NCBI GenBank assembly: GCA_008632985.1
Contig: QPGO01000336.1
Coordinates: 1-52,598, forward strand
DNA length: 52,598 bases
From: Psammoneis japonica
Lineage: Eukaryota
Direction of reading: 5' to 3'
Part shown: positions 1 to 27,127 of the stretch, one piece after another
Numbering within the stretch: the stretch's first letter is position 1
How the letters are laid out: each line of letters begins with the position of its first letter
Translations under genes and position numbers: made by a program
Notes under the pieces: model-generated
What the model was told of the DNA's origin: nothing
Database searches by the model: none
What the model saw: only the letters and a program-made list of their open reading frames with translations

Positions 1-649
1 CTGGCATGCTTTTTGCACAGAAGCTGCCCAAAAGCCAAGCACATCAGAGCCCACAATGTGGCGGCCATCACTTTCATTGGTTTTTGCCGCGCAGCTGCAT
101 TTTGTTGGTGTCATTCTTTTGATTGTGGCGCCAGTGCTTGAATGTTGTTTTCACAATGCAAGGTGTTTGACCTTTTCATGAGGATTTTATTTTGCCCATT
201 TGTGCTGATTGTTCATGCTCAAGCAACTCACATTTGCAAATGTTTTGTGACCAAAGCTTTGGGTGGTGACAACCCATGCTCCATGCCTTTGACAATTTGG
301 CTTTTGTGTTGGTTTGTGCTTTTTTGTTTTTGCCCCCCTCATGTGTCACAGCACACAATGCTGTCCACATCTGCCCAGTCACCTCTGTGTGTGCACGCAT
401 TTCCTTGTTGCTTCGCACCTTTTTCCAGAACTCTGTGACAGTTTCTCTGCTGTGTTCTCAGTCTTTTTTCTGCACACACCATTTCCTGCACATTTCACAA
501 CAACACACCCTCTCCCCAAAATCAATTTGACCAGAGTGTGCGATGTTGTGATTTGCTCACTTTCTGCATGTTCCGCGCAAACAGATGGCTGGCCACAGTG
601 ATCAACGTGCCCATCAGCGGAGGAGGNCCAACCCCAACCCCTCCTTTGT

Positions 650-1400
650 CTTTCCTGATGATGTCAATTTTGATGACACAGAACATTTCGCCAATGGCTT
701 CAATGGTTGAGTTTGTGCATCAGATCATTGCCGGTGAGGACCTCAATGACCCTGTCTCCGGCAAGCCTTGTTTCCATTTTTTTAGTGCAAAAATCTCAAA
801 TCTCTGATTGACGACTGAGCACAGGACCTTCGCGCTACAAAATTTGTTGTCAAAACAGCCGTGCATCCCATGTGGAGAAGGGTGGTGGAGTCGGGCAACA
901 CAAAGGTCATGGAGCTGGCCATGGCAAGCAACAAGGCACTGGCGCTGTTGGCATTGGAAAATTGCTGGAAGGTTTGGGAGCACAAATCCAAGCTGGAGGG
1001 AAAGGAAGAAGAGAGTGAAGAGGAGGAGAAGGAAACAAAACTGGCGCCCTTGCACACAGACCCACTGCATCAGCGCGACTCTTGGAAGGATGGGGAATGA
1101 AGCGATTCACTGCCCTGCTTGAGGAGTTGAAGGATGACAGGGCAAGTGAGCCGGGTGTGCAGCTCGACACATGGCACGCTGATGGAAAGAAAAAGGAGAG
1201 TGAGGGAAATGAAAAAAGAGCCAAACCACTGAAAAGCCAGCGGGGGTGGAGATGAGAATGCAAGCAACAACAGAGCTTTCTGGTGACAATGAGGACCATG
1301 AAGAGAAAACGGATGAACCAAGCAACAGAGGCAACAAGGAAGAAGATGAAGACAGCAAAGAAGACAACAATGACAAAGAACATGTGCAGACTGCAGTGCA
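650..1400 (+). pseudogene. Decayed ORF relic, acidic C-terminus, probably TE-associated
   Basis: Fragments ALALLALENCWKVW...PLHTD plus an acidic tail, broken by stops and frameshifts, in TA- and CG-depleted DNA. Family not securely recognised. Confidence 0.35.
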
Positions 1401-2165
1401 GGCCTGTTGCAACTTAAAAAATGCCAGACAACAGAGCATCAATTTGGCACTCATTGATGCACCATGGATGCATTCCAGCCCCAGGCGGGACTCCATGTTC
1501 CGCAGTGCCAGAAGTTGGTCAATGGATGCACCCATCTTCAACATCAAACAAATGGCCAAGCTTGTGGTGAAATTGTGCCTCTTGCCACTTGATGTTTTTG
1601 CAAGTGCACCTGCCCTGCACGACTCTCAAGACATTGCAGAATTGCGCTGAAACAAAAAATGTCAAGAGTTGTTGGAAGGATTGCTCAACAAGTGCACTGC
1701 AAAATGGGACCTTGCGCTGCTGAACTGTGACAACGACAGTTTTTGAATCATGTTGCATGTCAGGCACGTGGATTTCCACATGATTTTGGNNNNNNNNNNN
1801 NNNNNNNNNNNNNNNNNNNNNNNNNNNNNNNNNNNNNNNNNNNNNNNNNNNNNNNNNNNNNNNNNNNNNNNNNNNNNNNNNNNNNNNNNNNNNNNNNNNN
1901 NNNNNNNNNNNNNNNNNNNNNNNNNNNNNNNNNNNNNNNNNNNNNNNNNNNNNNNNNNNNNNNNNNNNNNNNNNNNNNNNNNNNNNNNNNNNNNNNNNNN
2001 NNNNNNNNNNNNNNNNNNNNNNNNNNNNNNNNNNNNNNNNNNNNNNNNNNNNNNNNNNNNNNNNNNNNNNNNNNNNNNNNNNNNNNNNNNNNNNNNNNNN
2101 NNNNNNNNNNNNNNNNNNNNNNNNNNNNNNNNNNNNNNNNNNNNNNNNNNNNNNNNNNNNNNNAA

Positions 2166-2344
2166 CGGCTGGTGCTGAGTCAACCGTTGTGACGTGTTAT
2201 CGGAGGGAAGCGTTGTTTTTCCCTCCAATGGCGCTCACTTGTTACGAGTAGTTGTAACAGGCCTAAGAGTATCTTTGGATCGTTAGATTGTTATCATACC
2301 AGTACTGTGAGTAGCTGAGCCACTCGGCAGCTGGATTTACTTGC
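2166..2344 (+). repeat. 5' LTR (3' part; start lost in N-gap)
   Basis: Ungapped 179-bp alignment to 8585-8763 with 12 substitutions. Confidence 0.9.
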
Positions 2345-2346
2345 TT

Positions 2347-2357
2347 TGTCAGAGCCA
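2347..2357 (+). other. Primer-binding site resembling tRNA-iMet PBS
   Basis: TGTCAGAGCCA sits immediately after the LTR end. It matches the canonical (TGG)TATCAGAGCCA with one TA>TG change; the leading TGG is absent. Confidence 0.6.
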
Positions 2358-2648
2358 CAGTCCGCACTCCGCGGTTTGGCGATGAAAAACGATGAATGAC
2401 GTGATTGTGACGGTCATGTCACGATGGCACGGTTTTGACGACGAATGCCAACTAACCTGAGGGTATTCACCGTTGAGTGATGCCTTCGCATCAGTGTATG
2501 CGCAAAGCAGTGGGAGATGAGGCCACATCTCCGCACTCTTGAGGCCTGCGCGCATCGTCAACGCGATTTTGTGAACGTCAAAGTTTTGATGCACTTCTTC
2601 TAACACAACTGCTTTGTCTTATGATGCTGTGATGACTCAAGTTTCACC

Positions 2649-3931
2649 ATGGCGGCAAACCCCCCGAACCCGATGGAAACGGCCCTTGCTTGGATCGGTT
2701 TCCAGTCACCTGCTCAGCGCAGCGCGATCATGACTGATGTCGCTGCGTTTGACGATGTCGTCGACATGAAGGAATCGGACATCGATGCGCTCGCGCAGTC
2801 TTACTCGAGGAGGACTGCTGCTGAGGGGCGTTTCCACTTTGGACCAGCTCGCACCCGTCGCCTCAAGTCCCTCATTCATTGGGTGCATGACTTCCAACGC
2901 GTTGGTGAAAATCCCACCATCGACGGTTTGGATCAGGCGCGTTTTTCTCGATGCGCCATCTGCTGCGTTGTCGAGGGCCGATGTTCGCAGCCAGATGAGG
3001 GATCAATCCAAGTCTGTTGCTCGTGAGGCATCCCCTGGACTCTTGGAGAGCGAAAAGGTCTGGGTAAAATGGAGTGCCGCTTTCAAGAACATGCTCAGCA
3101 CGATGCTGGGAGTCGACGGCGTTCCGTTGATTTGTGTCACACGCGAGAACGAGGAGCCCGAGCCTGAAGGGCATGAGACTTTTATGCAGAAGTCGGTTGC
3201 ATGCACTCCACTCGAGGGTCCAGCTTTCGAAGCTGATTCTCGCACCGTCAGCCAGCTAATCGTTTTGTTCACAAAAGGTGCCCCAAGCGAGCAGTGGATC
3301 AAAGAGCACCGCAACAGCCAGAACGGTCGTCTCTACTGCGAATCTTTGGAGAACCACTGTCAGGGCGAGGGCAATGCCACCCGTCGTATCTCAGAAGCTG
3401 AGCGTTTGGAAAACACTCTGCACTGCAGGAGTGAACGCTCCATGACGTTCGAAACGTTCGTGAACAAGCTTCAGGAGATGTTCAACATTTTCGAAGAGAA
3501 TGATGAACCCAAGATGGAGGCTCAGAAGCTGCGATTGCCACTCGACAAGGTGCAACACCAGCAGTTGCAGAACGCAGTGGAGACCCTGAAGGCGCAGAAT
3601 GAGTTTGGAGGAGGGATCAGTTTCCACCACAGCGTGCAACCATCTTGCCGCTAAAGTCGCCACCCTCCCGGAAACAGTTGCGCACCGTCGTGCGATTTCC
3701 TCTGTTGTGTCCGGCGTCAGCAAGGAAGGTGATTCCATTTACAAAGAAGATGGGTCCATTGACACCGGATTTCATAAAAATTGGCATCAATTGAGCAAGG
3801 AAGACAAGAAGAAGGTCATGGATGAGCGTGTGCGTTTGGGACTCAAGAAGAAGCCGGGTGACCCGAAGCGCCGCGCTGCATCCGTCAGATCACTTAAAAA
3901 AGAAGAATCAGAAGCTGACGTCCCAGCTTGA
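2649..3931 (+). pseudogene. Copia gag, frameshifted
   Basis: Overlapping ORFs 2649-3026, 2785-3654 and 3599-3931 join into one gag-like protein (GVDGVPL.CV.RE, PLEGPAFEAD, L.CRSERSMTFE.F) downstream of the PBS. Confidence 0.8.
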
Positions 3932-4116
3932 GCAAGCGAACTGCACTGTTTTCTTCCTTGGAGACCACTGCCGGCACCGATTCCGGAAACGTTGGTGCAG
4001 GAACTGGCGGTCGAGGCGGCAACAATGCCGGAGACGCATTTGGGGGGCACCAGGAGCGTCAGCGACGCAGCTGACTCCCAAGCTGGACCCTGCTTTGTGG
4101 CCTCATCCAGTTTGCA

Positions 4117-7100
4117 TTGTGGCCACTTCATTGGGGCGGGGGCCAGCCGTGTCGTTCGAAAGAAACGTTGGTTCATGGGGACTGTCGTTGCATTTGTGAA
4201 ATTGCTGCTTCCACACGACGAGTCTCTGCGGCACGGACTAACACGCGTGCCACTCACGTCCGAACAGACGATCAGGTAAAGCATGGACGACTAGAATTGG
4301 ATTCACATGCTGACACTGCTGTTTTTGGTTCGAACTTTACCCTCTTGGGTTACACTGGAAGAGAATGCGACGCATCGCCTTGTGACGAGGGATGCGAAGC
4401 CATCAAGAGTGTCCCAATCGCATCGGCGGCCACTGCGTGGACCTCACCAGCGATGGGAGCAACGCACATCCTGGTGTTCCATGAGGGGCTTTGGATGGCA
4501 GATTCCATGGAGAATTCTCTCCTTGACCCGAATCAGATGAGGCATTTTGGTGTCACGGTTCAGGATGACCCCTGTTCCGAGTTGCCGTTGCATGTCCTTA
4601 CGGAGGACAAGGGATTTATGCTACCTCTCGAGTTGATGGGAACTGGTGTCGTTGCGGCCACTCGGACCCCCACTGACAGGGAGCTCCAAGAGTGCCCACA
4701 CATCCAGTTGACCTCCCAACAACCTTGGGATCCACACAACGTCAAGTTTAAGCAGCCCAGACCTCGACGTTCTGTGGAGGAGGAAATGGAGTTGATTCGG
4801 TCGGTCGCAAGTGTTCGGTCAAGCCCCAGCTGCGCGTTTGGTCAGGATCCTGATTGTGGCAACCCTCAGTCCGGGGGCTGTTGTGATGGGAGACTTGTCT
4901 GCTGTGTGGACCAAGTTCAATCAAGATTGATGGCGTTAGTCCAGGTGGAAGCGGATGTTCAGATCGCGGCCACTGAGACGATCGGCTCGGAACTCGAAGA
5001 CGCGCCGTCCCCGAAGACTTTCATGTCCAAGGAACGGCACAGTTCTGTCACCGCTGTTGACTTGAGCGAGCGCTGGGGCATTGGATTGAAACAAGNNNNN
5101 NNNNNNNNNNNNNNNNNNNNNNNNNNNNNNNNNNNNNNNNNNNNNNNNNNNNNNNNNNNNNNNNNNNNNNNNNNNNNNNNNNNNNNNNNNNNNNNNNNNN
5201 NNNNNNNNNNNNNNNNNNNNNNNNNNNNNNNNNNNNNNNNNNNNNNNNNNNNNNNNNNNNNNNNNNNNNNNNNNNNNNNNNNNNNNNNNNNNNNNNNNNN
5301 NNNNNNNNNNNNNNNNNNNNNNNNNNNNNNNNNNNNNNNNNNNNNNNNNNNNNNNNNNNNNNNNNNNNNNNNNNNNNNNNNNNNNNNNNNNNNNNNNNNN
5401 NNNNNNNNNNNNNNNNNNNNNNNNNNNNNNNNNNNNNNNNNNNNNNNNNNNNNNNNNNNNNNNNNNNNNNNNNNNNNNNNNNNNNNNNNNNNNNNNNNNN
5501 NNNNNNNNNNNNNNNNNNNNNNNNNNNNNNNNNNNNNNNNNNNNNNNNNNNNNNNNNNNNNNNNNNNNNNNNNNNNNNNNNNNNNNNNNNNNNNNNNNNN
5601 NNNNNNNNNNNNNNNNNNNNNNNNNNNNNNNNNNNNNNNNNNNNNNNNNNNNNNNNNNNNNNNNNNNNNNNNNNNNNNNNNNNNNNNNNNCCTTGACTTC
5701 GGATTCTACGATCGGGTTTGGCACAGGGAGAATGCTGGTCTTGGTGACCAGAAGCTCGGCAGGTGGCTCGGAGTGTCCCACCGGATTGGCAGTCTAATGT
5801 CACATTACGTGTTGACGCAAACCGGTCATGTCATGTCGCGGACATCTGTTCAGCGAGTCACCAACTTGGAAGCTGGCACTCAAGAGAATCAAGATCGGTT
5901 CAAGGCTTTTGACGAGGAGATCCAGCGCAGACTTCGTGACCAAGATTTTCCCGAAGACGAAGAGCGCAGGATCAGCCCCGAAGACTGGAAGGACTGTCTT
6001 GGGTGTGACGATGAATTCCTCGACGAGTGCGATCGCGTCATCAGTTCTGAAGATGTGTCAAACAAGGACGACGACAAGAAAGACGAGGAAGCCTCCCCGG
6101 AAGCGGCGGATTGGTGTCACCTCAATGTGGAATTGGCTTTGCCGAGAGATGATGATGGTCCCGAGTTCGCGCGCGCAACGAAGAGGTTGAGGGATGCGAA
6201 CGGCATTCCCATTGGGACAGCCAACGACAACCCAATCCCAGATGCTCGAATGCATCAGGTGGAGCATCCCGATGGTCACACTGCAGCACTCTCAGCTAAC
6301 TCTGTTGCCATGAATGTGTTCGCACAGATTGACGAGGACGGAAATCGGCATGTTCTGTTCGACGAGATTGTGGACTTCTGTGCGAATGGGGACGTCCCGG
6401 AATCCGATTTCTTTGAAACTGAGCAAGGCAACAAGAGGCGACGCAGGACCACGAAAGGATGGGAACTCTTGTTCCAATGGAAGGATGGCAGCACTGCTTG
6501 GGTTGACCTGAAGGACGCGAAGGAAGGATTCCCTGTCCAGGTCGCCGAGTTCGCCATCCAACGCAAGATCTCGAAGGAGCCGGCGTTTGCTTGGTGGGTT
6601 CCGCACGCAATGAGGACCCGCAAGCGTTCTTGTTGCGAAGGTCAAGTCGAAGCATTGGTTGAGAACCCATGAATTTGGTGTGCGAATTCCCAAGACTGTG
6701 AAGGAGGCACTGGAGCTCGATTGTGCGAACGGCAACACCTCATGGCATGACGCCATTTGCTTGGAAATGAAGAATGTTCGAGTTGCGTTCGACAAGTTCG
6801 AGGGGGACGAAACGGAACTGCCTCCTGGGTGCCAACAAATCGACTGTCACATGATTTTTGATGTCAAGTTGGGAGAGAACTTTCGGCGCAAGAGTGGGAT
6901 GGTTGCGGGTGGTCACATGACCGACACCCCAACTGCCATCACCTGCTCCTCAGTTGTTTCCAGGGATTCGGCAAGGATTGCTCTTGCACTTGCCGCGCTC
7001 AATGACTTGCAAGTCTTTGCCTGCAACATCCAGAATGCCCACTTGACAGCGCCGTGCCGAGAGAAAATTTGGACTCGTGCCGGTGAAGAGTTTGGCGCGG

Positions 7101-8369
7101 AACGCGGTGAGATTGTGATTGCAGTCAGGGCACTCTACGGATTAAAGAGCTCCGGCGCGGCATTCAGGGCCTTCCTGGCGGAGACGCTTTGTGATCTAGG
7201 ACACAAGCCCAGCAAGGCTGATCCCGACGTTTGGATGAGGCCTGCAGTGAAGCCAGACGGATTCGAGCACTACGAGTGCATCTTGGTGTGCGTCGACGAC
7301 TCACTGTCGATCAGTCATGAGCCGATGAAGACTGTGGATGGCATCAAGTCGAAGTTCAAGCTCAAAGACGATAAAGCAGCGGAACCCGAATCCCACTTGG
7401 GTGCCAAATTGTCGAAGATGGACCTTGCTGACGGCACTGCCTGCTGGACGATGTCAGCAGAAGAATGCTGCAAGGCGGCGGTCCGGAACGTTGAGGACAA
7501 ATTGGCCAAGGAAGGAAAACGGCTACCGAGTAAAGCACACACACCTTTGAGCAGCGGATGCAAGCCGGAGTTGGACACTTCAGGCGAACTGGATGCAGAA
7601 GGCCTCAACTGCTGCCAAGAGCTGATTGGCGTTTTGATTTGGGCCGTGGAATTGGGCAGGGTCAACATCATTTTGGAAGTGTCAAACATGTCGGCTCACC
7701 TTGCCTTGCCGCGCATTGGTCACTTGGAACAGGNNNNNNNNNNNTTTGCATGCCCCCAAACAGGTCCCAAAGCGTCGGGTGGCGTTCGATCCTACGCATC
7801 CGGTCATCGACGAGTCTAGGTTCAAGGAGTGCGATTGGCTCGACTTCTGCCGAGACGCGCAAGAGGCGATTCCCCCCAACATGCCACCACCTCGAGGTGA
7901 CATTGTGTCTGCTCATTGTTTCGTGGATGCCAACCATGCTGGTGACGTTTCAACTCGCCGCAGTCATGCAGGCACTCTGATGTTCCTGTGCCGAGCACCC
8001 ACAATCTGGCACTCGAAGAGACAGAACACCGTGGAGACCAGTGCTTTTGGCGCCGAGATCGTGGCACTCAAGGTCACGGTGGAACTCATTGAAGGTCTGA
8101 GGTGCAAGCTTTGAATGTTTGGAGTTCCTGTTGAAGGTTCTACGAACGTGTTCTGTGACAATGAAGCAGTGTACAAGAATTGCTCCATCCCGGAGTCTGC
8201 TCTCAAGAAGAAGCATCATTCCATTGCATGCCATCGCAACAGGGAAGCTGTTGCTGCGGGGACTGTTCACTTGGCAAAGGAGGATGCGGAAACCAACCTC
8301 GCGGATTTGTTCACGAAGGTCATGACTTCGATTCGTCGCAATTTCCTGTTGGACAAGTTCACTTGTTGA
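4117..8369 (+). pseudogene. Copia pol (PR-INT-RT-RNaseH), frameshifted, premature stop, Tyr-eroded
   Basis: ORFs 4117-6672, 6659-7819, 7701-8114 and 8115-8369. Motifs include DSHADT, LGRWLGVSHRIG, CHMIFDVK, ALYGLKSSG, CVDD, SKRQNTVETS. An in-frame TGA falls at LRCKL*MFG (probably CGA>TGA). Confidence 0.93.
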
Positions 8370-8530
8370 ATTGGCGGCAAATGGGGTTTGGATTTTTGGG
8401 AATCGGGTCGGTGGTGATTTTCTTCCCCAGTGAGGGTTTACACCATGGCCAGCACGGAGTGTCAATGTGGTTGATTGCATTGGTTGAATTGTGTCTGTCA
8501 AGCACGCCCTTGGCTTGTTAGAAACATTTC

Positions 8531-8547
8531 AAGGGGACCGAAAGAAA
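8531..8547 (+). other. Putative polypurine tract / 3' LTR start
   Basis: AAGGGGACCGAAAGAAA lies ~160 bp after the RNase H stop and just upstream of the region homologous to the 5' LTR. Confidence 0.5.
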
Positions 8548-8763
8548 TCCGATGTGTCGGATTTAGTTAGAGTGCTGTTGGTGGCGGCTGGTGCTGAGTC
8601 AACCGTTGTGACGTGTTGTCGGAGGGAAGCATTGTTTTTCCCTCCAATGGCGCTCACTTGTTACGAGCAGTTGCAACAGGCCTAAGAGTGTCTTTGGATC
8701 GTCAGATTGTCATCACACCAGTGCTGTGAGTGACTGAGCCACTCGGCAGCTGGATTTGCTTGC
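8539..8763 (+). repeat. 3' LTR
   Basis: 8585-8763 aligns to the 5' LTR. The start is inferred from the PPT and an imperfect terminal inverted repeat (GAAAGAAATCC ... GGATTTRCTTGC). Confidence 0.8.
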
Positions 8764-9694
8764 GATGTGGAGATGCCAGATGCCCACCGCGGATGCACTT
8801 CCAGTCAGCGCGATGGCGCCGCTGTTCAACCGCAGTGTTGCTGTGATCTGGGTCTCTGCCAGTGGAAAATGCAAGGAAACTGAGCTTGCAGGGATGGGAA
8901 GACTTGCTGGCGTGTTGCTCCCTTTCCATTCCCAAGCTGCAATGGCATGACCAGAGGGAGGGAGAGGAGGGAGCACTTTTAACCTGGTGTTCACACTGCT
9001 CAACTTGTTGCCGCTGCTGCTGCAGCGAAACTCGCCACCCCCCTCTTACAAAGAGCGAGAGAGAGCAGCAGCGGCAGCGCTGGTTTGCCAACTTGCTCAC
9101 ATTCAATTGGTGATGAGAGGGGTGTCAGGGGGTTGTGAGCTCAACTGGCAATGAGGAATGAGGCATCTCCCCTTGTCTGTGTCTTGATGGCCAGGCTGGA
9201 AACTGGCATCACTTCATCCGACCTCTTGTGGTGATCTGGTGCTCCAAGGGTCTCGAGGGAGCTGAGCTTGCAGGGATGGGAAGACTTTGTCATTGACCCT
9301 TTTCCCTCCAAATCTGGAGTGGCATGGATGCTCCAGTGACGTGCACATGCAGTGCAAGGCAAGGCACACACCAGAGGGCAGCGTTTGGGAGGGCAGGGCA
9401 GGCCTGGCCTGGCTGGGCGGCTGTGGCAAGGCAAAGCAGTGTGCCACACAGCTGAGAAGGCTCTTGGCTTGGTGGCAAGTTGAGCCTTGGCATCAGGGTG
9501 AAGAACAAAACTGTCACCAGCCAATGAGCAAAAGTTCACTGCAGAGTTGGGGGTTTCAGAATTCTCGCGTGCTTTGTGGGGGCAATGTGTGTCATCCAGG
9601 AGGGGTCACAACTGCACAAGGGTTGGAAAAGTGTCACCTGGGTTGCATCAAAGACCTTCATTGCCCTCAGCCTGCTGTTCTTGGGTTGGTTGGT

Positions 9695-10262
9695 GCTTTT
9701 GCAGTGTCCTTTCACTGTGGTGTGTTGGGATTTTCAAGTCTCAGCCTTTCTGAGGCAAAGTGGCTGCTGGGGTGGCACAGCTGCATGAGGGTGGCCTTGC
9801 AACCCTCAACGACAGATCTCCAAGTGTCGCATGTGGTCTTGAAAAGACCCTCAATGCCCTCAGACTGCAGTTGTTGGGTTTGCTGGTCTCGCCATGGCAG
9901 TGTCCTTTCACAGCTGAGTTGGGATTTTCAAGTCTTACCCTCTTTGTCCTTGCAAGCTTCAAAACCACAGTTCTCAACACATTGCCTTGGGTGTCCACCC
10001 TGCAGCTCTCAGGTTGGTGGGTGCCACCATCATGTCCTTTTGCTGTGTGGAGCTGGGGAATCCAAGTCTTGCTCTTTGTGAGGTGAAGCAACAGGGGGGG
10101 GGGGGGGGGCAAAAACTGCTGCGCACACAAGGCCACCAGCAATGCTCTTGGCCACAGCTCTCAAACCCCACAATGCCCACAGGCTGCTGTTCTTGGATTG
10201 GCCAGTCCCCTCCATTGTGTCCTTTCACAGTGCAAGGTTTGAGTCTTGTCTTTCTTGTGAGG
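9695..10262. repeat. Degenerate dispersed-tandem repeat (4 copies of a GTGTCCTTTCAC...TT.CAAGTCT core)
   Basis: Core copies near 9701, 9897, 10031 and 10213. Confidence 0.6.
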
Positions 10263-13200
10263 ACAAAGTGACATGGCGGGGCTGCAGCACTGCACCACCA
10301 GAAAGACCTTTGAAGTCTCAGCCATGGCTCTAAAAGTGATCCCTTGTGTTTTGTGTTTGCCAAAGACCTGCAACACCCTCAGCCTGTGACTCTTTTGCTT
10401 GACGGTTCTGTCAGTGAGGGCTCCAACAACTCTGAAAAAGAAAACAGCTGCAAAAACAGTCTCGCAGGCACAAACAAACCAACAAGCAAGCTGTGTGAGT
10501 CCCGCCAGCACAAACAATGTGAAAATTTCATTCTCCACAAGAGCACACTTCCATCACAAAAAAGCTGCAACATCAGTCTTTGTTGAACACAGATGTGCTG
10601 CTTCAGATTTGAGCCACAGCAAATGTGACAGCTCCCGCGTCAGCCAGCAAAGAGGCTGACAATGAAAAGATTCATTTGGGTCAACTTAAATCACAAAAGA
10701 ATGGCCACTTGTTGCAAAATGTCAGAGTCATTTGGGTGAACTTAAATCGCAAAAACCTCACAAACAGGAGAGATGTGGTCAAAGGGCACCAAAAAAGGCC
10801 ATTTGCAAAATGACATGGCAATGATCACCAGGCCAACAGGCTTGGCTGAAAGAAGGCAAAAAAGGATCTTTGCCAAGACACACATCAAGTGTCATTTCCT
10901 GCTGCTCTGCACATGTGGTTGGTCATTGACAGCTCATCATTGACCATGTCACCAAAAAGCATGTGGGTGCCCTTGCAAGCATCATGTTGATGCTGCAAAA
11001 ACAGGGTTGTGCACCCACAGCCCACACCATGCAGGCTGATCAAACCCCGTGTTGTTGTTGTTGTCTAAAGAACAGCATGTTTTGGATGTCACATCCAATG
11101 CATTGTCAGCTCCACACGTGCTTTCATTGAAAACACAGTGCTTGCATTTCTGTTGTTGCTGTGGTGTCAACATGGGCCACATCACATGGCCTCTCTCACC
11201 TGCATTCTCAACACATCATTCAGTCACACTCCAGCAAGCCACTTCTCTGCCACATCTGCCACAAGCAACAGCTCTGACAAAGCAGCAGAAAAGACCACTG
11301 CAAAAGCAGCAATGAACCATTCTGTGCTCCCACTGTGAAAAAATCATGGGCAACTCCACCAACATCTCCAAGTTGCCCCAAAGAAAGTCAATCATGACAT
11401 TCTCCAATGAACCTTTTCAGTTGGCAAAACCACAGCATGCTCTGCAGCACTTGGTAAAAAATCATGTGTGTGCACTTCATGGCTGTTTAAAAAAACAGAA
11501 ACCACATCAAAAGCTCCAAGGAAAGAGACAGCCTGTTTCCTCCTGCCCCTCTGCTCAATGGTTGGGGCATGTCCAGTGCATGAAAGCTGATTGCGCGTGC
11601 ATGCTTGACAGCATGCAATGATCTTCTGCCAAAAGAATCTACTTTGTCATGCATTTTGAGCCTGCTCATGAAGCACCTCCAGCCAATTGCCAGTGATTTG
11701 CAGGTCAATTTGGTGAGCAATTTGCCACACTTTGCCCCATGGCAAAATGAGGGCTGCCAATTTTTTTTGACAGCCACAGGAGGAGCAAAAGTTTTGAGTT
11801 GCGTGACCCTTGCATTTGTCAAACAACATCAGTTCTGCAATGTTGAGCCACTTGGACCTGGGCCAGATGGGGACCCTGATGGAATCACAAAAGGCCAATG
11901 AGAGCAGAGCGAGTGGAACACCCGATGGAATGTTGGACAAGACAGGAGTGGAACAAGGAGACACGCTTGTGCTTGGGCTCAAGAAAGGAGAACTTTGCAG
12001 TTAAAGCTGTGGTGTGCTGCTCAAGCTTGGCTGACAAGAAAGACACTCATTGAGAGCTTTTGATGAAGCTGGGTCAACACTTGACGGCTGACCTGGCGTG
12101 CTGCAAATCAAGTGGCTTTGCACTGCAGATCTCAAAAAGAGAAATGCCCACTGAGAAGGGTCCATTTTCCAGTGCATCTGCCAATTTGAACAAGTCAAGG
12201 AGCACATCAGGTGGCACAAGAACCCCAGCTTGGATTGGTTGTGTTGGTTTCCACTGGCACTGCCTCGGTCAAGTTGTGTGCACAACCCCCACTCTTGCTG
12301 TGAGCATGCAGCCTTGCCCACACCTGGACAAGCGGTGCTGCTGTGCCGCAAGACGAGTGTCTCGTGAAGAACATTGGTTGATTTTAATGTGCTCTGAAAA
12401 CCCGGCAATGTGAACGTTGGATCTGATTCTGTGATCATCTCCATCAAATCATGTGAGCATTTCTCTGTTGCCTTGCGATGGAAGCATCTCGGAATGACTT
12501 TCCCACGGATTCTTACATGGCCCACATGTTCAAAATTAACATTTTGTGCAGATTTCACACAGGCATCGCTGATCCAATCGAAATCGCGCAGTGCGCACAT
12601 CCAGTGTTCATTGTTTTTCGTGTCATTTCCACGAGCATTGCACTGCCAATGAATCCAAATAATTTTGTTTCCATGTTTGACCGCAAATGCAGTGTTTGTC
12701 ATTTTCCTAAACAAAATCTGTGAGACATGAAGACACGTCGGACATTTTCCTGCTTGGGTTGATGACATCATCCATTGCTGTTTTAATTGAGCCTTCGACG
12801 CCAACGAGGCCGGTTTCAGGGCTGCAGCAGTTCCGTGCATCTGCACGTTCTGCAGTTACATGGATTGGATGAAAAAGCTTCATCCATTTGAGCTTTTGCA
12901 TGCAGGGTCATTTTCACTCCCTGTGACCGGTGTAGATGCTCGTTCATCATAAATTTTTTCATTCCAGACATTGTTGTTTCCATTTGTTTATTTTGTGTGT
13001 GTTAAGGCGGGCCGTCGGCTTGTTTTTTTTGCACGTCTTTTCCGGGTTTTTACGCGTTTTTGACGGGTCGCGACAGAAAATGACACGACAAAAGCACGAA
13101 CGACAATGATGATGTTCGTGACGAGCGGTGAGTTGCAAAGCATCACCTCACGAGGGACACTCATTGGTTTTATTGTCGTCACACAGTGCAGATTGATTCA

Positions 13201-14133
13201 CATGCTTTCGTCCCTCGTGCCACTGGGCCAATTTTGAGAGACAGCGCAATTGCCGTCATCGTCGTGCTTCGATTGCGGTGCCTGATGTTCTCGTTTTCGT
13301 GGGCGATCGAACAATTCTTGTGTTTAAAATTGACAATTGCAAACAAACGCATTCAAACACATTGCCAATTTTAGGACAAACATGGAAAAAATGGGTCGGC
13401 GGTCCCCCTTGAAGTTGCCACATGTTTTTCATGCAATCTCCTTGAGTGGACACCTCATGCATTGTTCTGCGTCCTTTTCACGCAGGATTTCTGATCAATT
13501 TTTCTGCCCAATTTGTTCCTGCAGGACTCACTCAATCCTGTTAACTGCCCCTCACAAGACCCAACACACGTCAACAAGGACACAATAAAAATGTCTTTCA
13601 TGACTGCAAATCTACGACCACACGAATCATGATGCAAGAACAAATCCATCACCCTTTTATTCCCTGCAACACCTGAATGACAGAATTGCTGCACCCGGAA
13701 CCTTCTGCCCAATGCCAGAGTGATGCACATGTTGTTTTTTGTTTGCATCCCAATGGAAGCCGGTGCAACCGATCCAACACCTTTTTTGGCTGCATGTTCT
13801 TCTTCTCAGAATGCTCTTTGTCGAAAAAAAGGCATGCACCGAATCAGACCATGATGATCCTTTTTTGTTGCTGAACAATCTCACCCCGTCCTTGCTGTCA
13901 CTGTTTTCGTTCTTGGAGATGAAGGACAGCATTCTTTTTTTATCATGTGCAATCACCGCAGTGGATTTGACCAATGCCACTGCAGCAGCGGACGCGGTGC
14001 ACCACATGGGGGTCGTCGCGGCCATGTGGGGTTCGCTCGTCATCACAGTGGTTCTGGTCTTGCTGGCATTGGCGGTGGCGGCACATTCACCGGTGGCAGT
14101 CTAGGCCGTGGCGGTGTCCGGGGTGGTGGGTGT

Positions 14134-15065
14134 GGATGTGGCCGTGGTGGTGGCCCTCCTTTTGCATCTCATGGTGGAACATCGTATGACGGCAGTGATG
14201 GTGACGGCAACAGTGTTGGTGGCAACATCCTTGCAACCCGGTGGCCGTCCCATGATCAGCCCTCATGATGGATGTTGTGGTGGACATTTGTGTGATGGCA
14301 GTGGGCGTGGATGTGGCTGTGGTGGTGGCCCTCCTTTTGCATCTCATGGTGGAACATCGCATGATGGCAGCGATGGCAACGGCAACAGCGTTGGTGGCAA
14401 CAGCCTTGCAACCGGCAGGCGTCCCGTGATCAGCGCTCCCCATGGATGTCATGGTGGACATTCGGATGATGGCAGTGTGTGCGGATGCGGCCGTGGTGGT
14501 GGCCCTCCTTTTGCATCTCATGGNNNNNNNNNNNNNNNNNNNNNNNNNNNNNNNNNNNNNNNNNNNNNNNNNNNNNNNNNNNNNNNNNNNNNNNNNNNNN
14601 NNNNNNNNNNNNNNNNNNNNNNNNNNNNNNNNNNNNNNNNNNNNNNNNNNNNNNNNNNNNNNNNNNNNNNNNNNNNNNNNNNNNNNNNNNNNNNNNNNNN
14701 NNNNNNNNNNNNNNNNNNNNNNNNNNNNNNNNNNNNNNNNNNNNNNNNNNNNNNNNNNNNNNNNNNNNNNNNNNNNNNNNNNNNNNNNNNNNNNNNNNNN
14801 NNNNNNNNNNNNNNNNNNNNNNNNNNNNNNNNNNNNNNNNNNNNNNNNNNNNNNNNNNNNNNNNNNNNNNNNNNNNNNNNNNNNNNNNNNNNNNNNNNNN
14901 NNNNNNNNNNNNNNNNNNNNNNNNNNNGGCGTGGTGGCGGCCGTGGTGGTGGGCGTGGATGTGGCCGTTGTGTGGGCCCTCCTTTTGTGTCTCATGGTGC
15001 AACATCGGATGACGGCAGTTTGGGTGGTGGTGGTGCGGGCGACAGCCTTGCAACTGGCAGCCGTG
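14134..15065 (+). repeat. ~174-bp tandem repeat encoding Gly/Arg-rich units (GRGxGRGGGPPFASHGGTS...)
   Basis: Units start at 14134, 14309 and 14483 (the third runs into gap 14524-14927), with another copy near 14957. Confidence 0.85.
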
Positions 15066-15121
15066 GTTCTGACAGTTTTGTCAGCCCCAACTCATCTTCT
15101 TGATCGGTTCCTGCATCGGTC

Positions 15122-18100
15122 ATGACAGGTGCTCATTCGGACACCACCTCATCACCCGGCAAGCCGGTGCCAAAGATGAGGAGATGGCTTGAAGAAGAAT
15201 GGCACAGTGACTCTGAGACAGATGGGCTTGGCGATGAATGGCACAGTGACTCCAAGATGGATGGGCTTGGCCCGAACAACCAGATTCCAAATGTAGATGA
15301 GTTGGCCAGCAAGTCTGATGATGACAGCGATGCCAACACAGAGGTCAGCTGTGACTTCCTTCAAGGTCGGCATGTCGACTCGATGTCTGATGATGTCGAC
15401 GATGATGGTTTCGGTCAAACACACTGCGCGGATGGGGCCCGTGGGCATCAGACTCTGTTGGATGACCCCGTTCAACCTTCCGTGAGTGCATTGATTGATC
15501 ACACAAAATCCGCCAAGCCCACCGATCTAAAGTGTGAAAGAATCAATGTTGCTTGTGCGGACTCGGAGTCGTCATGCCGCCACAAAATTCATCTGTTGTT
15601 TGAAATGCATGACAAACCCATTGCCACTTTCAAGGACAAGGACAGCTCCAATCTCACCCATCTCAGCACGCCCGGCACACATCATGTCTTGGCATGTGAG
15701 AGAGCCGATCATGGATTTGTGATGGCGAACAATCTTGAGTGCTCACCTCATTTTACTCTGGAGGATTCGATGCTTGCCAGCTGCAAGTTAAAATGCGATC
15801 GTTTGAACATCCAATGTGCCGAGGCAAAGGCCTGCCAGCACAACACCTTGAAGCATGGGGGGAATGTCGCGTTTGCATCCATTGGCGAGGAAAGCTTTAT
15901 GGAGGACATCCTGTCTCTTGACCTTGAATCCGCATGGTGTGATGTCATGGTGAAGGACGATGAGTCGGATCCTCGGAAGAAACATGTGGCACAATGTGGC
16001 CCCAGGGGCAACCGAGGATTTGCCGTCGGAATTTGTGGGGACCAATGTGTTGATTGTGACGAAGATGGGATTGCTCATCCAGAATTCAAGACCGGGACCG
16101 CCCGGTGCACTCCTTTGATGTTGGCATTCAACAAACTTTGTAAGAAAGCTCACTCTGCATTCCTTCCCGACAAGCCGTTCATGGACGAAACCCTGTTTCC
16201 TGCTAGGAGGAAAGACTTCGCCATGAAAATTCATGAGGAAATGGACCTGGAGTTTGTTTCTTGCAATTTTTTGATGCATCTGAACGATGGGTCGTTCACT
16301 GGACCGGACCGTTTAAAGCATCACACCGACTCACAGGGATGCCGCACACACAGCGACCTGCATGATGCGTGGCAAACATTTGTGTGCAAACGCACCAATG
16401 TCAGGGTGACGGCTGCAATGACGGGTGGTTGGAAAAATTCTGTGTCCAACTGTCATGAAAGGATGGAAATTTTTGGCAAGGCAAGTGATTGCTTGATCCA
16501 CCAGTGCAACCAACCACCGGCCGAGCGATGCAAGGTGGTTGCCGCCCTCCACTGTCCGGACACAGTCCCTGTCAAGACAACACCCGTTCATTGCCAGCCA
16601 TTGGCCCAAATGGTGTCACTGTTTGACAAGATTCTCAGAGTCTCCAATGCACTGGCCGAGGACGGCCGCACAATGTCGGGTTTCCTGTTTCTGGAAATGA
16701 TGTGCAGTTTTCATGCATTCTCCAACAATGTCTGCTGATGTGAATTGTTTCGTCGTTCTTGCATGGAGGTGAGTGAGTGCGATCCTTTGCCTGTGCTCTC
16801 ACTCCCGGTTGCCTCTGTCATTTGCCAGGATTGGGGCTGCTCGTTTCGCCCTGGTTGGTCGTACGCCAAGGAGTGCCGCAGGTTCCTGGGACAGAACTTC
16901 CCATCCTTCGATGGTTGCCGTGACTTTGACGGTGAAAAGGTCGGCGGCGTCCGACACCAGTCGACACCGTCTCACCCCATGATGGGTGACAGTTCCGACA
17001 ATGCCTGCTGAGAATTGCACATGATTGTGTGTCCCCCCACCGCAATGTCTCCATCTCCCATGTCACACGCAAGAAACTCATCAAAAAAAAACAATTTCAA
17101 AAGTGGCTGGTGCACAAGATCTGAAGTCTCAAAAGGTTGTCACCGGTTGTTCCACCCTGGCGAACGAATTTGACATCAATGTCTTGAACATGGCGCATCC
17201 GGGAAGTGACATGGGAATGAAGAAGAAGCTTCGTTTGGCTGGCTTCGACATTCCAAACAAAGAATCTATGACAATGGTTGTCAAGAGTGCATCTACAAAG
17301 ACGAAATTGCCCATCATGAATGGTGAAGAAACAACTTGTGTCGTCACGCGGTCGATCGGCGACGGCCGCCGTGATGAGGGCGAGGACAGCATTCCTCGCA
17401 ACGTTCCCATTCCCTTTTCACAACTGAGCGACGATGGATTGCCCGAGGTTCATTTGTCGGACAAGTCCAATGGCCGCCGACCACGATTGCTGCAGCAGAT
17501 TCATCTAAATTGGAGCTTGGATCCCACAGCAAATCATCATGTGCCGACCTGGGCGCCGGTGAATTGCAATTCGGCCGACACTGTGAGTCAATGTCTGGCC
17601 ACGAGAAAGCTGTCTCTCATGGCAAGAATGCCCACACTGAAAAATCATGAGTGGTCTCGCAAGGCCAGGACTGCCGTTCAGGGGCGGGAGAAGTTGGAAT
17701 CGGATGACACCATCACTTTAACGGATTTCTCTGACACCGTGGCTGTGTTGCAGAAATTGTTGAACAAGCGACAATGCCTGGCGCTTCATGATCCATCGGA
17801 ATTTGTTGCAACCAAATGCTTGGGCATCCAATGCAAATCTCTGGTTGAATCAATCGAAACAAAGAAGCACTCTGACGGCTCTTTCAAGGCCAGTCTGTCC
17901 TGTTCCGACATTCCCCGACATGTGAAGACCGCTCAATTCGGATCACTTCACAAAGACCACTTGCCACCACTTGGACCAGTCGGCTGGGACAAGGGATTGT
18001 ACAGCACCAGACATGATGCCTTGAGCGCGTTGTTGTTGACTCTGATGTTTGAAACCAACTGTGGAAACGGCAGGAGCTGGTTGTGGCACCATCTTCGAAT

Positions 18101-18311
18101 TGCTCGTGAGTTTCTAGTGCTGTTGCCGTCTTCTAAAAAGAATGCATCCGTGGTGCGGGTGGTTGCAATGGTGTGCAGAGAATCCAAGAATGCATCACGG
18201 GAGCCCCGGGTGCATGCAAGACACTTGTCCGAGAGCAATGGAAAGGCACTGCGTCCCTTGGAGGTGGCAAGAGATGCCCATGGTCAATTGGATGGTTTCT
18301 GTTTGTCGTGA
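15122..18311 (+). pseudogene. Large (~1000 aa) uncharacterised gene relic, convergent with the MULE transposase; possible 2OG-Fe(II) dioxygenase-like segment
   Basis: ORFs 15122-16738, 16745-17011 and 17025-18311 read as one interrupted gene with an acidic N-terminus and nearly no Tyr. The Gly-rich repeat region from ~13.9 kb may be its true 5' end. Confidence 0.6.
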
Positions 18312-18354
18312 AGCACTGCCATGTTTACATTGTCACATCTAAAATGGAGACGTG

Positions 18355-18452
18355 AACCATCTTTGCACTGTCTCGTGTTGGTCGAACTGGCCTTGGTGGG
18401 GTCAACCATCTTTGCACTGTCTCGTGTTGATCAAGCTAGCCTTGGTTGGGTC
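18355..18452. repeat. 49-bp tandem duplication
   Basis: AACCATCTTTGCACTGTCTCGTGTTG... at 18355 and 18404. Confidence 0.85.
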
Positions 18453-18540
18453 GTGTGCAATGGTGACATGGGCAAAAGCATCCCGCAAAGTACATTGCAT
18501 GTTGCATGCACACGCAGCACGGTGGTGGACAGGAGCTCAT

Positions 18541-18690
18541 GTTGGACACAAACGGGGTGGAATGGTTGGTTTGTTCGTTTGTCGGCAAGTGCCTGAATCC
18601 AACATGAGTTGCTTCATTGGATGCAAACGGGGCGGAACAGTGAGTTTGTTCGTTTGTCGGCAAGTGCCCGAATCCAACATGAGTTGCTTC
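18541..18690. repeat. 75-bp tandem duplication
   Basis: ...TTTGTTCGTTTGTCGGCAAGTGCCYGAATCCAACATGAGTTGCTTC in units 18541-18615 and 18616-18690. Confidence 0.85.
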
Positions 18691-21410
18691 GTTTGCAGTT
18701 GTTGGCTTCCTTGCCACAACGGCACCCAGCTTCCTCATTTTCTCACGTCGCTCTGCTTCCACCTGAACAGCTTTGGCATCATCCACTTGACTTTGGCGGG
18801 ATCTTTTCCTCACCAGCAACTTGTTCGTTCTAGATGCAAGGATGTCTTTGTGCTGCAGTGCGGCTGCATGAGGACACTTGGTTGTCTTGTGGAACTCTTC
18901 ACAGTCGCCCATGCAAAGGGTGCGGCCACCCGGCAAATGTTTCATTGTCACATGGCACAGACCCATGGTGAGCTTGTACAATGCATCATGTGAGTGCTTG
19001 CAATCGCCGACAAAGTGACCCCTCAGGGCATTCTCGCAGTCGATCATTCGTGTTGGATCGATGGGTGTCCCAAGGGACTCTTGGGTGTTCACCAAGTGGC
19101 CACCCTTGTGTGCAACCATGTCCTTCTCCAAATCCATCTTGCCAATTTCCTCAATGACATTTTGGGTGAGGGCCTTGTCCTCATCGAGAATGCGCCAACC
19201 CTTTCCAATGGCAGAACACTCTTGCGTGTGTGTGTGCACCAACCCAGGCAATGTGTCGTTGAGTGCACGATGCATCAAGACACCAGAGGGAAGGAGACCA
19301 ACGAACTGATTGCTTCCCCACATTTCAAGATTCATTCTGCAACGCAATGACAGGTAAATTGCATGAGTGTGGAATGCGGCAACATGCAATGACAACAGAA
19401 ATGGCACAGACTCACCTTTCGTGCGAGTTGTTTTGGGGCACGCAGCCCGGCTCCCCGAATGTGGAAACAATGCCACTGAGAAAAATCTTTGTTCTCGACG
19501 CACTGGGAATCAAACACCTCCGCAAGCTTTGTCTCTCCTGCCATTTTTCATGAATGAATGACCATCTTGGCCATTGGGCAAAACAGCTCCCATGTCTTGC
19601 ATCGATGAAGCTTCCTCACATCCTTTGTGGCCACCCTCATGAGGAAGCTTTGGTCTTTGACGCACTTGCGACATTGTCCATTGTGCTTTCTCGTAAAGTC
19701 GGTCTGGAATTTACGCATGAGGTGTGGGCAGCAAGTTGCAAAAGGATCTTTGGGAAACAACAGTTTGAACGCATTCCGGAATGAGTGCAAGTGATCCGAG
19801 CACAATCCGCCACCAAAGTGCAAGTCGTCTGTGCCGAACAAATCGAAAGCCGCCTTCTTTGTTGCAAGCAGCAGGTGCAGTGCACCCTCTTCGTGTTCCG
19901 CTGTTGCAAGTGCATAACCGACAGGCTTGAGCAAGGACAAAAAATGTTGCTTGCCCCCCCTTTCTCGTTTTGTGTGGTCCGTGACTCCAAAAACAATGGT
20001 CACAAAATCATTGCCGACCACACCATGCATGCCGTCTATCATTCCAACTATTTTGAAGTCGAGGTCCTTGCAGTCGCACATGTTTCTGAGCAGGCCAAGG
20101 GACGAAAACACGATTGTGTTGTCCATTGCCGGCAAGAATGGACCCTTGCTCCCCTTTTTCTTGTTGTGCGATTCCTCGGCATTTCGCTGACACAACAGCA
20201 TCCTGTCTCGAACCTTTTTGGGAAGGTCGCCGAGGTCGGGGACCGGAAGACAAAACATGTCTGTGTGGGGCATTCCCTCTTTGCTGTGTCGCTTGCCCCG
20301 GCATCCGGTGTCACACAGATCTTTGGCGAGTTCCATCATGTGAACCTTGGAGGCCACCAAATGGGGCTTGCAGGTGGATGGAAGACACAGAGCATGGTTT
20401 CAACTGAGTGCAAGCAAGTCTTGTGTGCACTTGATCTTGACCTTTTCGGTGGGATTGTCCCCAAGGGATGACTTGGGACGTTGATCGTTGCTTCTGTTGT
20501 TGGAATCAAGCAAGCGACAAATCTTGTTGCTCACCTTGTCCCTCAGTTCTTGGGTGGCAAACAATGGGGTGATGGATGGGTTTTCGGAAACCGACAGTTT
20601 GGCAACTGTGCGGCGGGTGATGTCCTTCGGTTTGAGGGTCCTTCGGTTTGAGGGGACGGGTCGTCCTGTTTTAGCCTGTCCACGTGATCCTTGACCAGCG
20701 GCGGCAAACCTCGGGGAACCAGTGGACAGCATGTGGTCCACCCACGTCCGGCGCGTGTGGGTGGAGTGATCTCGGAGGATGCGACATTTGCAGTGCTCCT
20801 TGCCAGGGAGCGTCACTGTCTCAGCTTGAAAGGGACAATCCTTGTCAACCTTGCAGCTGTGTGTTGTCGTGATGGGCTGCAGCGGGTCTTGTCTCCTCAG
20901 GAATGTGTTGTTGTTTCTGTCCGTCTTTGCGTCTGGGCCCAGAAAATGTTTTGCCTCGTTTGCAGACTTCATGAGGTCACCTGGAACGAGGTCAAGGGCA
21001 CGGCCGGAATCATGATCATGGCGGGCAATCAGCTGGGGCAGAGAAAGGCTGCTGGCTGTGTCAGGGCCACACAGCTCGGGTGGAATGGCTTCTGGCCCAT
21101 GAGTTTCGGAATCTCCATTGACAGATTCTTTGCATTTCACGACGGAGGAAGATTTCTTTTTCAGAAAATCATCACAAACGGCAGCAAGGAGCTCGTCGCC
21201 CCTTTCACCCAAAATGGAGTCTCCAACGTGCTGGACCCGCTCAGCAAATGCTTTGGAGTCCGGAGCAAAAATGGAGTGATCCTCAGTGCTGATCTTGCGA
21301 GCCATGACCGCAAGACATGAATCTCTGATGGGGCCGGGACCCACCCCTTCAGCCAGAGATCGGAGGCGGGTGGCGGGAGATGGAAGGTCGCCGTCGCTGA
21401 GACCAGACAT
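18690..21410 (-). mobile_element. Mutator-like (MULE) transposase relic with N-terminal C2H2/WRKY-like finger, DDE domain and SWIM finger
   Basis: ORFs 20400-21410 (SCKVDKDCPF...DHSTH), 19548-20360 (MIDGMHG...; CSDH..FRNAF..LFP....CCPHLMR) and 18436-19503 (CMGDCEEFHKTTKCPH). Frameshifted; TIRs not identified. Confidence 0.8.
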
Positions 21411-26129: not shown

Positions 26130-27127
26130 ATGGGTTCAACACTTGCGTCTTCTTCTGCTTATATGGCATCATCAGTTCCACGTTCTATTGAAAAGGTAGT
26201 ACCTTGTACGCCAGGAACGGTGAATCGACTGATTGGAACGGTGGATATCGACGGCAAGGGCACGACGCATGATGCGCTCGCCGACTGCGATCCGTGCATG
26301 CTCTTGGATCAAGGCACCATTACCAAGAACAACATGCCTCCCTTTGGTGCACATCCTCATCGTGGTCATTCCGTCGTGACAGTTCTTATGCAAGGATCCA
26401 TGACGAGTTGGGATTCCTTTACAAACAGCAAAACCACAATTACGGGTCCTTCTGCGTATTGGGTGAATGCAGGATCGGGCGTCTTTCACGATGAAGTAAC
26501 AGTCATTGAGGATGAATCCGATCCAAAGCAACACGTGTCACTATTTCAGTTGTGGGTTGGAGTGAAGGAAGTAGATCGTCAGAAACAAGCCACCCTGAGT
26601 TGGGCCAAGGATTTGCCTGTACAGAAACTCATGGAGGAGGACGGTCAAGAGATTGGAAACATTATTTATTATGTGGGCGGAACTACCACGGAACTCGATA
26701 TTCCTAGACCACTGACTGTGGCACAAGTTTGTCAACAGGCTGGAACCACCTATAAGTTTCCAATTCCCTCCGATCATACAGGCTTCATTGTAAATCTGAG
26801 TGGAGCGCCAAATGTCGATTCCAAATCCAAGCCAGCGTCGTTTGGCGGAACGACACCTACAAAACTCAATGACGTGTTGGTATTAGTAAGGATGGTAATC
26901 ACATTGAGATTGTATCCGACACGAATCATCCTACGGATTATCTAGTTTGTGTCGGAGAACCCCATGGCGAGCCTTGGAGTAAAAAGCTCGTGGCCAACGG
27001 AGCTGTTATTGCCAAGTCTCCTGAAGAGGCTCAAGAGATTGCAGCCAAGGTGGAAGAAATGTCCAAGCGAGGCAAGGAGACTGGAGACTTTTCTCCCTTT
27101 GGGATGAAACCAATGGCAAAAGAATAA
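26130..27127 (+). CDS. Pirin-family cupin protein (one apparent 1-bp frameshift near 26885)
   Basis: DPCMLLD, FGAHPHRG, AGSGVFHDE, FQLWV. The C-terminal pirin segment (YLVCVGEPHGEP...) continues in a shifted frame to TAA at 27125-27127. Confidence 0.85.

Follow-up and report, generated by a model that had tools for sequence, protein, structure and literature searches.

The stretch of DNA analyzed here, hereafter the window, comprises 52,598 nt of contig QPGO01000336.1 from the diatom Psammoneis japonica, and it carries near its left end a retrotransposon in which the dinucleotide 5′-TA-3′ (TpA) has largely given way to TpG and CpA. Within this window, the element is laid out as a gag-like gene followed by a pol gene, with a direct repeat at its termini (Table 1). 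The gag-like gene was placed by alignment to the open reading frames (ORFs) that lie upstream of pol in related elements. For pol, a Pfam scan matched RVT_2, the Copia-type reverse transcriptase, in 6614-7732 (E 1.5e-11), and a protein search returned 1892 relatives, the best with 69% identity over 99% of the query. These relatives are full-length polyproteins of ~1400 aa, and the limits of pol (4186-8363) were mapped from them. The carrier is very probably a dead Ty1/Copia-type long terminal repeat (LTR) retrotransposon inserted in an older repeat island of the diatom genome, a judgment that is made jointly for the whole of the best explanation developed below.

The left end of the terminal direct repeat and the target site fall in the run of Ns at 1790-2163, while the 3′ LTR probably starts within 8364-8584. 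When an initiator-tRNA-type primer site following the 5′ LTR was sought in the relatives, nothing consistent was found, and the 7-nt core present in the window occurs only at unrelated places. Further copies of the LTR or of pol are absent from the rest of the window. The frameshifts of gag and pol coincide with 2942, 3624-3626, and 6630, where other copies in a public run (X1) have one base fewer, and they are therefore one-base insertions in this copy or in its assembly.

Table 1. Features of the element and its immediate surroundings, in window coordinates. O/E, ratio of observed to expected dinucleotide count.
Feature	Position	Strand	Remarks
Left flank, older	1..1789		TpA-free, CpG-poor; 4 TpA vs 121 expected; highly repeated in run X1
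N run (assembly gap)	1790..2163		Hides 5′ LTR start and left target site
5′ LTR copy, partial, at contig edge	2164..2344	+	12 TpA, O/E 1.07; TpA loss not detectable
Leader, LTR to gag	2345..2672	+	TpA 5 observed, 19.4 expected; O/E 0.26
gag-like ORF	2673..4068	+	Frameshifts near 2944 and 3625; aligns with ~500-aa upstream ORFs of related elements
pol, Ty1/Copia type (RVT_2)	4186..8363	+	N runs 5096-5690 and 7734-7744, frameshift near 6627, one stop at 8112
pol stop to repeat	8364..8584	+	Purine-rich tract; TpA O/E 0.28
3′ LTR copy	8585..8763	+	10/12 TpA erased (5 TG, 5 CA); O/E 0.21
Older island hosting the element	8764..22500		TpA-poor, partly CpG-poor

Direction, specificity, and extent of TpA loss

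The direction of the change can be read from the coding sequence. An alignment of pol was built from the 83 full-length relatives (1300-1450 aa) among the 120 listed of the 1892, and it contains 438 columns conserved at 90% or above. At the 19 columns conserved for Tyr, the window has Cys 10 times, His 6 times, Tyr twice, and Phe once, and the catalytic YVDD of pol has become CVDD (codon 7289). Conserved Cys (7 columns) and His (9 columns) never read Tyr in the window, and conserved Trp (18 columns) and Gln (11 columns) never read stop. Altogether, 53 conserved columns have changed: 18 through a single TA>TG change, 11 through a single TA>CA change, and none through the reverse, with the rest consisting of 5 cases of CpG decay, 1 other A:T>G:C transition, 9 transversions, and 9 multiple changes. 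If only the columns with a single transition are counted, 29 of 35 are TA>TG/CA, 5 are CpG decay, and 1 is of another kind. T precedes the changed base in 8/8 of the A>G changes at first codon positions, and in gag, conserved Tyr has become Cys in 3/3 cases. None of the conserved Tyr columns reads Arg, the outcome of TA to CG; thus, a site that has been hit once is no longer a target.

In repeat-induced point mutation (RIP), C is changed to T preferentially at CpA, making TpA and stop codons. Since conserved Tyr has become Cys or His with no change in reverse and no new stops, RIP polarity is excluded. Judged from coding sequence, and independently of the LTR pair, TA to TG/CA is the direction of change. 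Ordinary RIP read backwards was considered as a candidate and is refuted by the coding sequence (29 TA>TG/CA against 0 reverse; stops at 0/29 Trp and Gln columns). A first-pass annotation of this DNA had proposed both the direction and its restriction to TpA, and the counts bear out the former (16/19 conserved Tyr now Cys or His, 0 reverse) as well as the latter (10/12 TpA of the LTR, 29/35 single-transition columns).

The terminal repeat displays the same change at the nucleotide level. The intervals 2166-2344 and 8585-8763 align over 179 nt without a gap and differ at 12 positions, every one a transition, and a repeat search of the window returns the same pair. The 5′ copy contains 12 TpA and the 3′ copy contains 2, both common to the 5′ copy. 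At five sites, TA of the 5′ copy corresponds to TG in the 3′ copy (2199, 2271, 2304, 2313, and 2339), and at five others to CA (2249, 2255, 2284, 2292, and 2297). Only 1 of 9 CpG differs between the copies (2212, CG vs. CA), and the twelfth difference, G/A at 2314, adjoins a TpA site. A recount therefore agrees in full with what had been reported for this pair: an ungapped match with 12 transitions, of which 10 fall on the 12 TpA (5 TG, 5 CA), and 1/9 CpG changed. The TpA bases make up 24 of the 179 positions, and the binomial probability that at least 10 of 12 differences fall among them is 9.6e-8, a concentration by which chance is excluded; the contrast between TpA (10/12) and CpG (1/9) is likewise marked (Fisher P = 0.002). 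Outside TpA, the two copies differ at only 2 of 155 bases. The contig-edge bases 2164-2165 (AA) stand opposite GG in the 3′ copy, so that the match can also be read as 181 nt with 14 differences of A/G type, in which case no more than one of the two added differences could belong to a TpA. For the 3′ copy, its mutated state is confirmed by a contig from an independent public run that equals 8659-8900 with 0 differences, covering 10 of the 12 differing sites and joining them to the flank. The LTR pair thus gives a clean view of the mutational spectrum, be the 5′ copy the element's own LTR or that of an unmutated family member.

At the 10 LTR sites taken alone, the data are symmetric as to direction, and the TpA O/E of the 5′ copy (1.07) exceeds the median of the family (0.65). 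This would suit a RIP-like polarity, with the 3′ copy ancestral and the 5′ copy having gained TpA by C>T at CpA (G>A at TpG). However, such a polarity is scarcely credible, as the interior of the element shows the opposite (29 TA>TG/CA against 0 reverse at conserved columns, and no Gln or Trp turned into stop), the repeat islands of the window are all TpA-free instead of TpA-rich, and the loss in the 3′ LTR (10/12) equals the loss in the interior (16/19 Tyr). It is also most improbable that no dedicated system is at work and that a passive bias of mutation or repair, for instance GC-biased gene conversion between repeat copies, produced the pattern. The change does go from A:T to G:C and does affect repeated DNA, but it is confined to one dinucleotide with a further context bias, it distinguishes 10/12 TpA from 2/155 other bases in the LTR, and A:T>G:C changes outside TpA represent only 1 of the 35 single-transition changes at conserved columns.

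The extent of the loss was compared with a control set of 80 related elements from metagenome contigs, in which TpA O/E has a median of 0.65 and ranges from 0.29 to 1.05. In the interior of the element, the ratio is 0.15 (44 observed vs. 298.7 expected). Approximately 85% of TpA sites are gone in the leader, gag, pol, and 3′ LTR, with CpG and other sites nearly untouched. In an alignment of 20 sequences, the window reads 2 Tyr, 11 Cys, and 7 His at 22 conserved Tyr, and at these same columns the sum of Cys and His is at most 3 in 77 of the 80 metagenome loci. TpA erasure is much faster than CpG decay, since the CpG O/E of the element is ~0.9 while the older flanks are depleted in both dinucleotides (CpG O/E 0.07-0.4). 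The terminal repeats found in 31 of the metagenome loci are mostly exact assembler overlaps (96-127 nt at 100%) and not LTR pairs; in the few diverged terminal pairs, differences of the TA type are a minority (e.g., 1/12, 3/13, and 2/29), and these serve as a rough control only.

The same signature exists in environmental relatives. In a related Copia element on an environmental contig (L064, whole locus of 6429 nt), TpA O/E is 0.29, and the 25 conserved Tyr read 3 Tyr, 11 Cys, and 11 His. Comparison of this locus with another (L059), using three outgroups, gives 96 changes TA>TG/CA vs. 22 in reverse. In a second case, two loci that are 98.3% identical (L052 and L016) were polarized with a third as the outgroup (L004), and 40 of the 79 polarized differences are TA>TG/CA, with 3 reverse. 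Each of the two has ~20 such changes of its own, and TA>CA exceeds TA>TG by 26 to 14 (~2:1).

Strand use and sequence context

Both strands are hit. The outcomes TG and CA occur 5:5 in the LTR, and over Tyr codons and LTR sites, where both outcomes are visible, there are 18 TG and 11 CA (P = 0.26), in agreement with the strand symmetry first described for this locus. Patchiness of strand use along the element is not significant (11 runs vs. 14.6 expected, P = 0.10).

Strand use bears on the proposal that editing occurred before integration, with an ADAR/ADAT-like or other deaminase acting on RNA or single-stranded complementary DNA (cDNA) so that the element arrived already mutated. Editing of this kind would give sharp borders between a TpA-poor element and host genes, and some relatives are indeed strand-biased (TA>CA 26 vs. 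TA>TG 14 in L052 and L016). Nevertheless, this proposal is improbable. Editing of RNA would leave the two LTRs identical, whereas the LTR copies differ; the strands are hit about equally here (18:11), whereas APOBEC-type editing of cDNA is strand-biased (PMC4866542); and the same signature is reported to arise de novo in integrated DNA of the alga Bigelowiella natans (10.64898/2026.01.13.699255).

The bases that flank TpA also matter. When Y denotes a pyrimidine and R a purine, the 46 TpA that survive in the element divide into 18 YTAR, 24 mixed, and 4 RTAY, while in 76 unmutated relatives the corresponding shares are 18%, 48%, and 34% (P = 4e-5 against the survivors of the element). The survivors in the old islands are biased in the same way (33 YTAR, 34 mixed, and 5 RTAY; P = 9e-11), and the TpA context of the host stretches resembles that of the relatives. 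In the environmental loci, the 3′ neighbor of the mutated A is a pyrimidine in 39/40 cases for L052 and L016 and in 77/96 cases for L064; in the LTR alone, it is a pyrimidine in 7/10. Given the bias of the surviving TpA together with the counts in the environmental loci, the target beyond TpA itself looks like 5′-TAY. In this scheme, TAY sites are lost first, RTAY presents a target on both strands, and YTAR sites last longest. On the product side (TGY vs. TGR, RCA vs. YCA), the element lacks any context signal and the old islands show a weak one, a comparison that is uninformative at near-complete erasure. Together with the order RTAY > mixed > YTAR, the preference for TAY supplies a specific fingerprint for testing candidate enzymes.

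Islands of TpA loss and the 5′ LTR copy

The element is one part of a larger pattern in the window. Sharp TpA-free domains occupy 1-22,500 (except for the 5′ LTR), 25,514-26,025, ~35,800-38,600, and ~49,930 to the window end. TpA O/E is 0.03-0.15 in the element and islands vs. 0.62-0.63 in the host stretches between them, and the borders are sharp, with those of the larger domains at ~22,340-22,510, ~35,810-38,620, and ~49,930-50,030. In the old island, the ORF at 15104-16735 (+) contains no Tyr among 544 aa, compared to a mean of 3.5% in 30 homologs, and has Cys and His in excess. These homologs, found with HMMER (best E 6.5e-43, 31% identity), belong to an unassigned family; a word-based search gave no match to the ORF, and a Pfam family was found in 0/14 scanned homologs. 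This ORF is probably a hypermutated gene of an unclassified mobile element.

Other features of the islands are as follows. The TpA-poor interval 1-22500 contains many long open frames on both strands and in all six frames, 48 of them of at least 100 aa in 1-10500, because TAA and TAG have been erased. In the left flank, the summed word depth of 1500-1766 in run X1 is ~49,000, compared to roughly 30 for two exactly matching flank contigs. A tandem 75-nt repeat with 88% identity is located at 18542-18691 in the old island, and on two occasions a dinucleotide reads CA in one copy and TG in the other, the outcome predicted had an ancestral TA (or CG) been hit separately in the two copies. The domain at 25514-26025 is a TpA-poor islet of ~500 nt in normal host sequence, with a single TpA (25850) and a CpG O/E of ~1, and it may be a young small insertion. 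The ORF at 25470-26135 (-) has no Pfam family. Directly downstream of the islet is a pirin gene (26118-26945), for which the named relatives are all diatoms (Nitzschia, Detonula, Synedropsis, Seminavis, Amphora, and Cylindrotheca), marking the host as a diatom and not Bigelowiella; in a protein atlas, the gene matched only bacterial pirin clusters.

Several observations weigh against a TpA-directed process that acts across whole domains and on TAY. The 5′ LTR copy has lost 0/12 TpA, where the loss per site elsewhere is ~0.83, and the probability of escape by chance is ~6e-10; a domain-wide process does not account for this complete escape. This copy also opens a contig, occupying its initial 181 nt beside a gap, and belongs to a multi-copy family. 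For the 10 LTR sites themselves, the direction is taken from the element interior. The places at which run X1 differs from the window were judged from 40 of 490, a subset lying outside the 5′ copy; these 40 represent largely one diverged contig and are mostly differences of the CpG type, with 11 places reading CG in the window vs. TG/CA, 8 reading TG/CA vs. CG, and only 5 reading TG/CA vs. TA. With regard to context, the window-wide count of a pyrimidine 3′ of the mutated A (32/42) is inflated by Tyr codons. Lastly, when 62 ORFs of the remaining TpA-poor regions were scanned against Pfam, no transposon domain was found, the single match being a below-cutoff ATG11, and the repeat nature of those regions is thus presumptive.

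There are three readings of the clean 5′ copy: assembly into the LTR of another copy, conversion by or recombination with it, or real local protection. It is a serious contender that the 181 nt at the contig start derive from the unmutated LTR of another family member, through assembly, conversion, or recombination, in which case the mutation process is still real but the pair gives no post-integration timing. This is consistent with the state of the 5′ copy (0/12 mutated), with the start of TpA-poor sequence at or near the LTR end (leader O/E 0.26), and with the position of the copy next to the N run at 1790-2163. In run X1, 1439 contig pieces with a likeness of 80% or more map to 1500-9500, making the family multi-copy, and the run contains only 0.38 of the sampled words of 2164-5095; X1 was the one DNA run listed for this sequence, and RNA runs were absent from the listing. 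Conversely, nothing points to a mis-join, the contig runs without a break through 2164-5095, and 2 non-TpA differences in 155 bases are the expectation for one young insertion. Only under local protection would the LTR pair clock events after integration. Of the claim in the first-pass annotation that these are the two LTRs of one insertion, and hence that mutation followed integration, the pair and its differences stand, while the step to a single insertion is not secured given the unmutated 5′ copy, the contig edge, and the multi-copy family.

Candidate mechanisms and known systems

The observations are best explained by a directed process that converts the A of 5′-TpA-3′ to G on either strand, so that the plus strand reads TA>TG or TA>CA. 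We infer that this process is enzymatic and that its substrate is double-stranded DNA, already integrated and lying in transposon or repeat chromatin. TadA, ADAT2-ADAT3, and ADAR are RNA enzymes that deaminate A to inosine, which is read as G, and in the natural tRNA substrate of TadA/ADAT the base ahead of the edited A34 is U. A candidate chemistry, which may tentatively be regarded as the most likely one, is that a TadA/ADAT2-like deaminase converts adenine to hypoxanthine, as hypothesized in the B. natans preprint.

Alternatively, the same targeting could be coupled to a different chemistry, in which the thymine of TpA is oxidized to 5-hydroxymethyluracil or 5-formyluracil by a TET/JBP-type enzyme, or is otherwise modified, and mispairs with G, making T>C the primary change. 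In double-stranded DNA, both chemistries yield one spectrum and sequence cannot separate them; the context as oriented to T, a purine before it (RTA), is equally compatible. This alternative is nonetheless rather unlikely, since we know of no TpA preference for TET/JBP-type enzymes, whereas the tRNA substrate of TadA/ADAT inherently has a U ahead of the edited A. A preference for an upstream U is also cited for ADAR in the B. natans preprint (10.64898/2026.01.13.699255).

A more far-reaching and decidedly speculative possibility is that a 5′-TAY DNA adenine deaminase is sent to transposon chromatin as a heritable diatom defense, altering TpA on both strands at a rate far above that of CpG decay. 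Such a defense would be widespread in marine diatoms, given its traces in environmental contigs, and either shared or convergent with that of B. natans, with the 5′ LTR locally protected, for example as a bound promoter, and not misassembled. A natural DNA adenine deaminase, if it does exist, would be of interest to base-editing research. The signature in a diatom retrotransposon and its environmental relatives suggests a widespread defense of marine phytoplankton, opposite to RIP and APOBEC editing. It also affects the annotation of diatom genomes, where dead transposons would show few stops, long spurious ORFs that mislead gene callers, and Cys or His in place of Tyr.

No described pathway had been known to the first-pass annotation, a statement that must be revised, as one 2026 preprint reports directed A:T>G:C mutation of integrated foreign DNA, thus far in one alga. 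The process has therefore been described once already; what is new is its occurrence in a diatom and in an LTR retrotransposon. Besides this preprint, full-text searches of the literature found nothing relevant, and nothing for diatoms. A paper on diatom Copia elements makes no mention of RIP, hypermutation, dinucleotide, or point mutation (PMC2806351), and the available portion of a mutation accumulation study of P. tricornutum describes a bias toward GC>AT with no hot spot at TpA (PMC6604790); in a further paper, the lone match to TpA is the word Tpase (PMC4504042).

Two silent viral regions integrated in B. natans acquired 231 mutations in mutation-accumulation lines, of which 230 were A>G or T>C and fell on TpA, with some lines affected and others not (Mettrop et al., bioRxiv 10.64898/2026.01.13.699255). 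An ADAT2-like deaminase has been proposed as the enzyme, activity on DNA is cited as reported for amphioxus ADAT2, and ADAR is noted to favor U before the edited A (10.64898/2026.01.13.699255). The hypermutation of nucleocytoplasmic large DNA virus (NCLDV) and virophage DNA in B. natans, as presented in the preprint, resembles that of the diatom element in consisting almost solely of A>G/T>C changes on TpA, with TpG or CpA as the product depending on the strand. There, the changes keep to bounded segments of silent DNA of foreign origin, the trace left over the long term is a scarcity of TpA and an abundance of CpA and TpG, and the genes low in TpA are enriched in reverse transcriptase and DDE domains. 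The two cases differ in host, a chlorarachniophyte vs. a diatom (stramenopile), and in target, viral DNA vs. an LTR retrotransposon with its surrounding repeat islands. Erasure is deeper here, with O/E of 0.03-0.15 vs. 0.45 for the NCLDV region of B. natans. A TAY bias is present here, while the main text of the preprint does not mention trinucleotides, context, or flanking bases. In B. natans the process was watched in culture lines, and here it is deduced from sequence.

Compared to better-known systems, the process was initially described as distinct from RIP, from the decay of CpG, and from the editing of retro-intermediates with its strand bias, and the coding, LTR, and strand counts uphold this. 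As with APOBEC3, hypermutation of a deaminase type, with a dinucleotide context, has been fixed in genomic copies of a retroelement; however, APOBEC3 converts C to U on antisense single-stranded cDNA before integration, leaving strand-biased G>A changes (PMC4866542), whereas in the diatom element both strands show A:T>G:C. Decay of CpG through 5-methylcytosine similarly leaves an excess of TpG and CpA in silenced repeats and is present in the older flanks, but only 1 of the 12 differences between the LTR copies and 5 of the 53 altered columns are attributable to it, and CpG O/E in the element is still ~0.9. RIP of Neurospora and other Pezizomycotina, for which sequence duplication is the trigger, in a premeiotic phase, and which depends on RID/DIM-2, also produces dense, transition-only mutation of repeated or foreign DNA on both strands with a dinucleotide preference and kills transposon genes. 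In polarity, the two are opposite: RIP creates TpA and stop codons through C>T at CpA, while in the diatom element TpA is destroyed and no stops are made.

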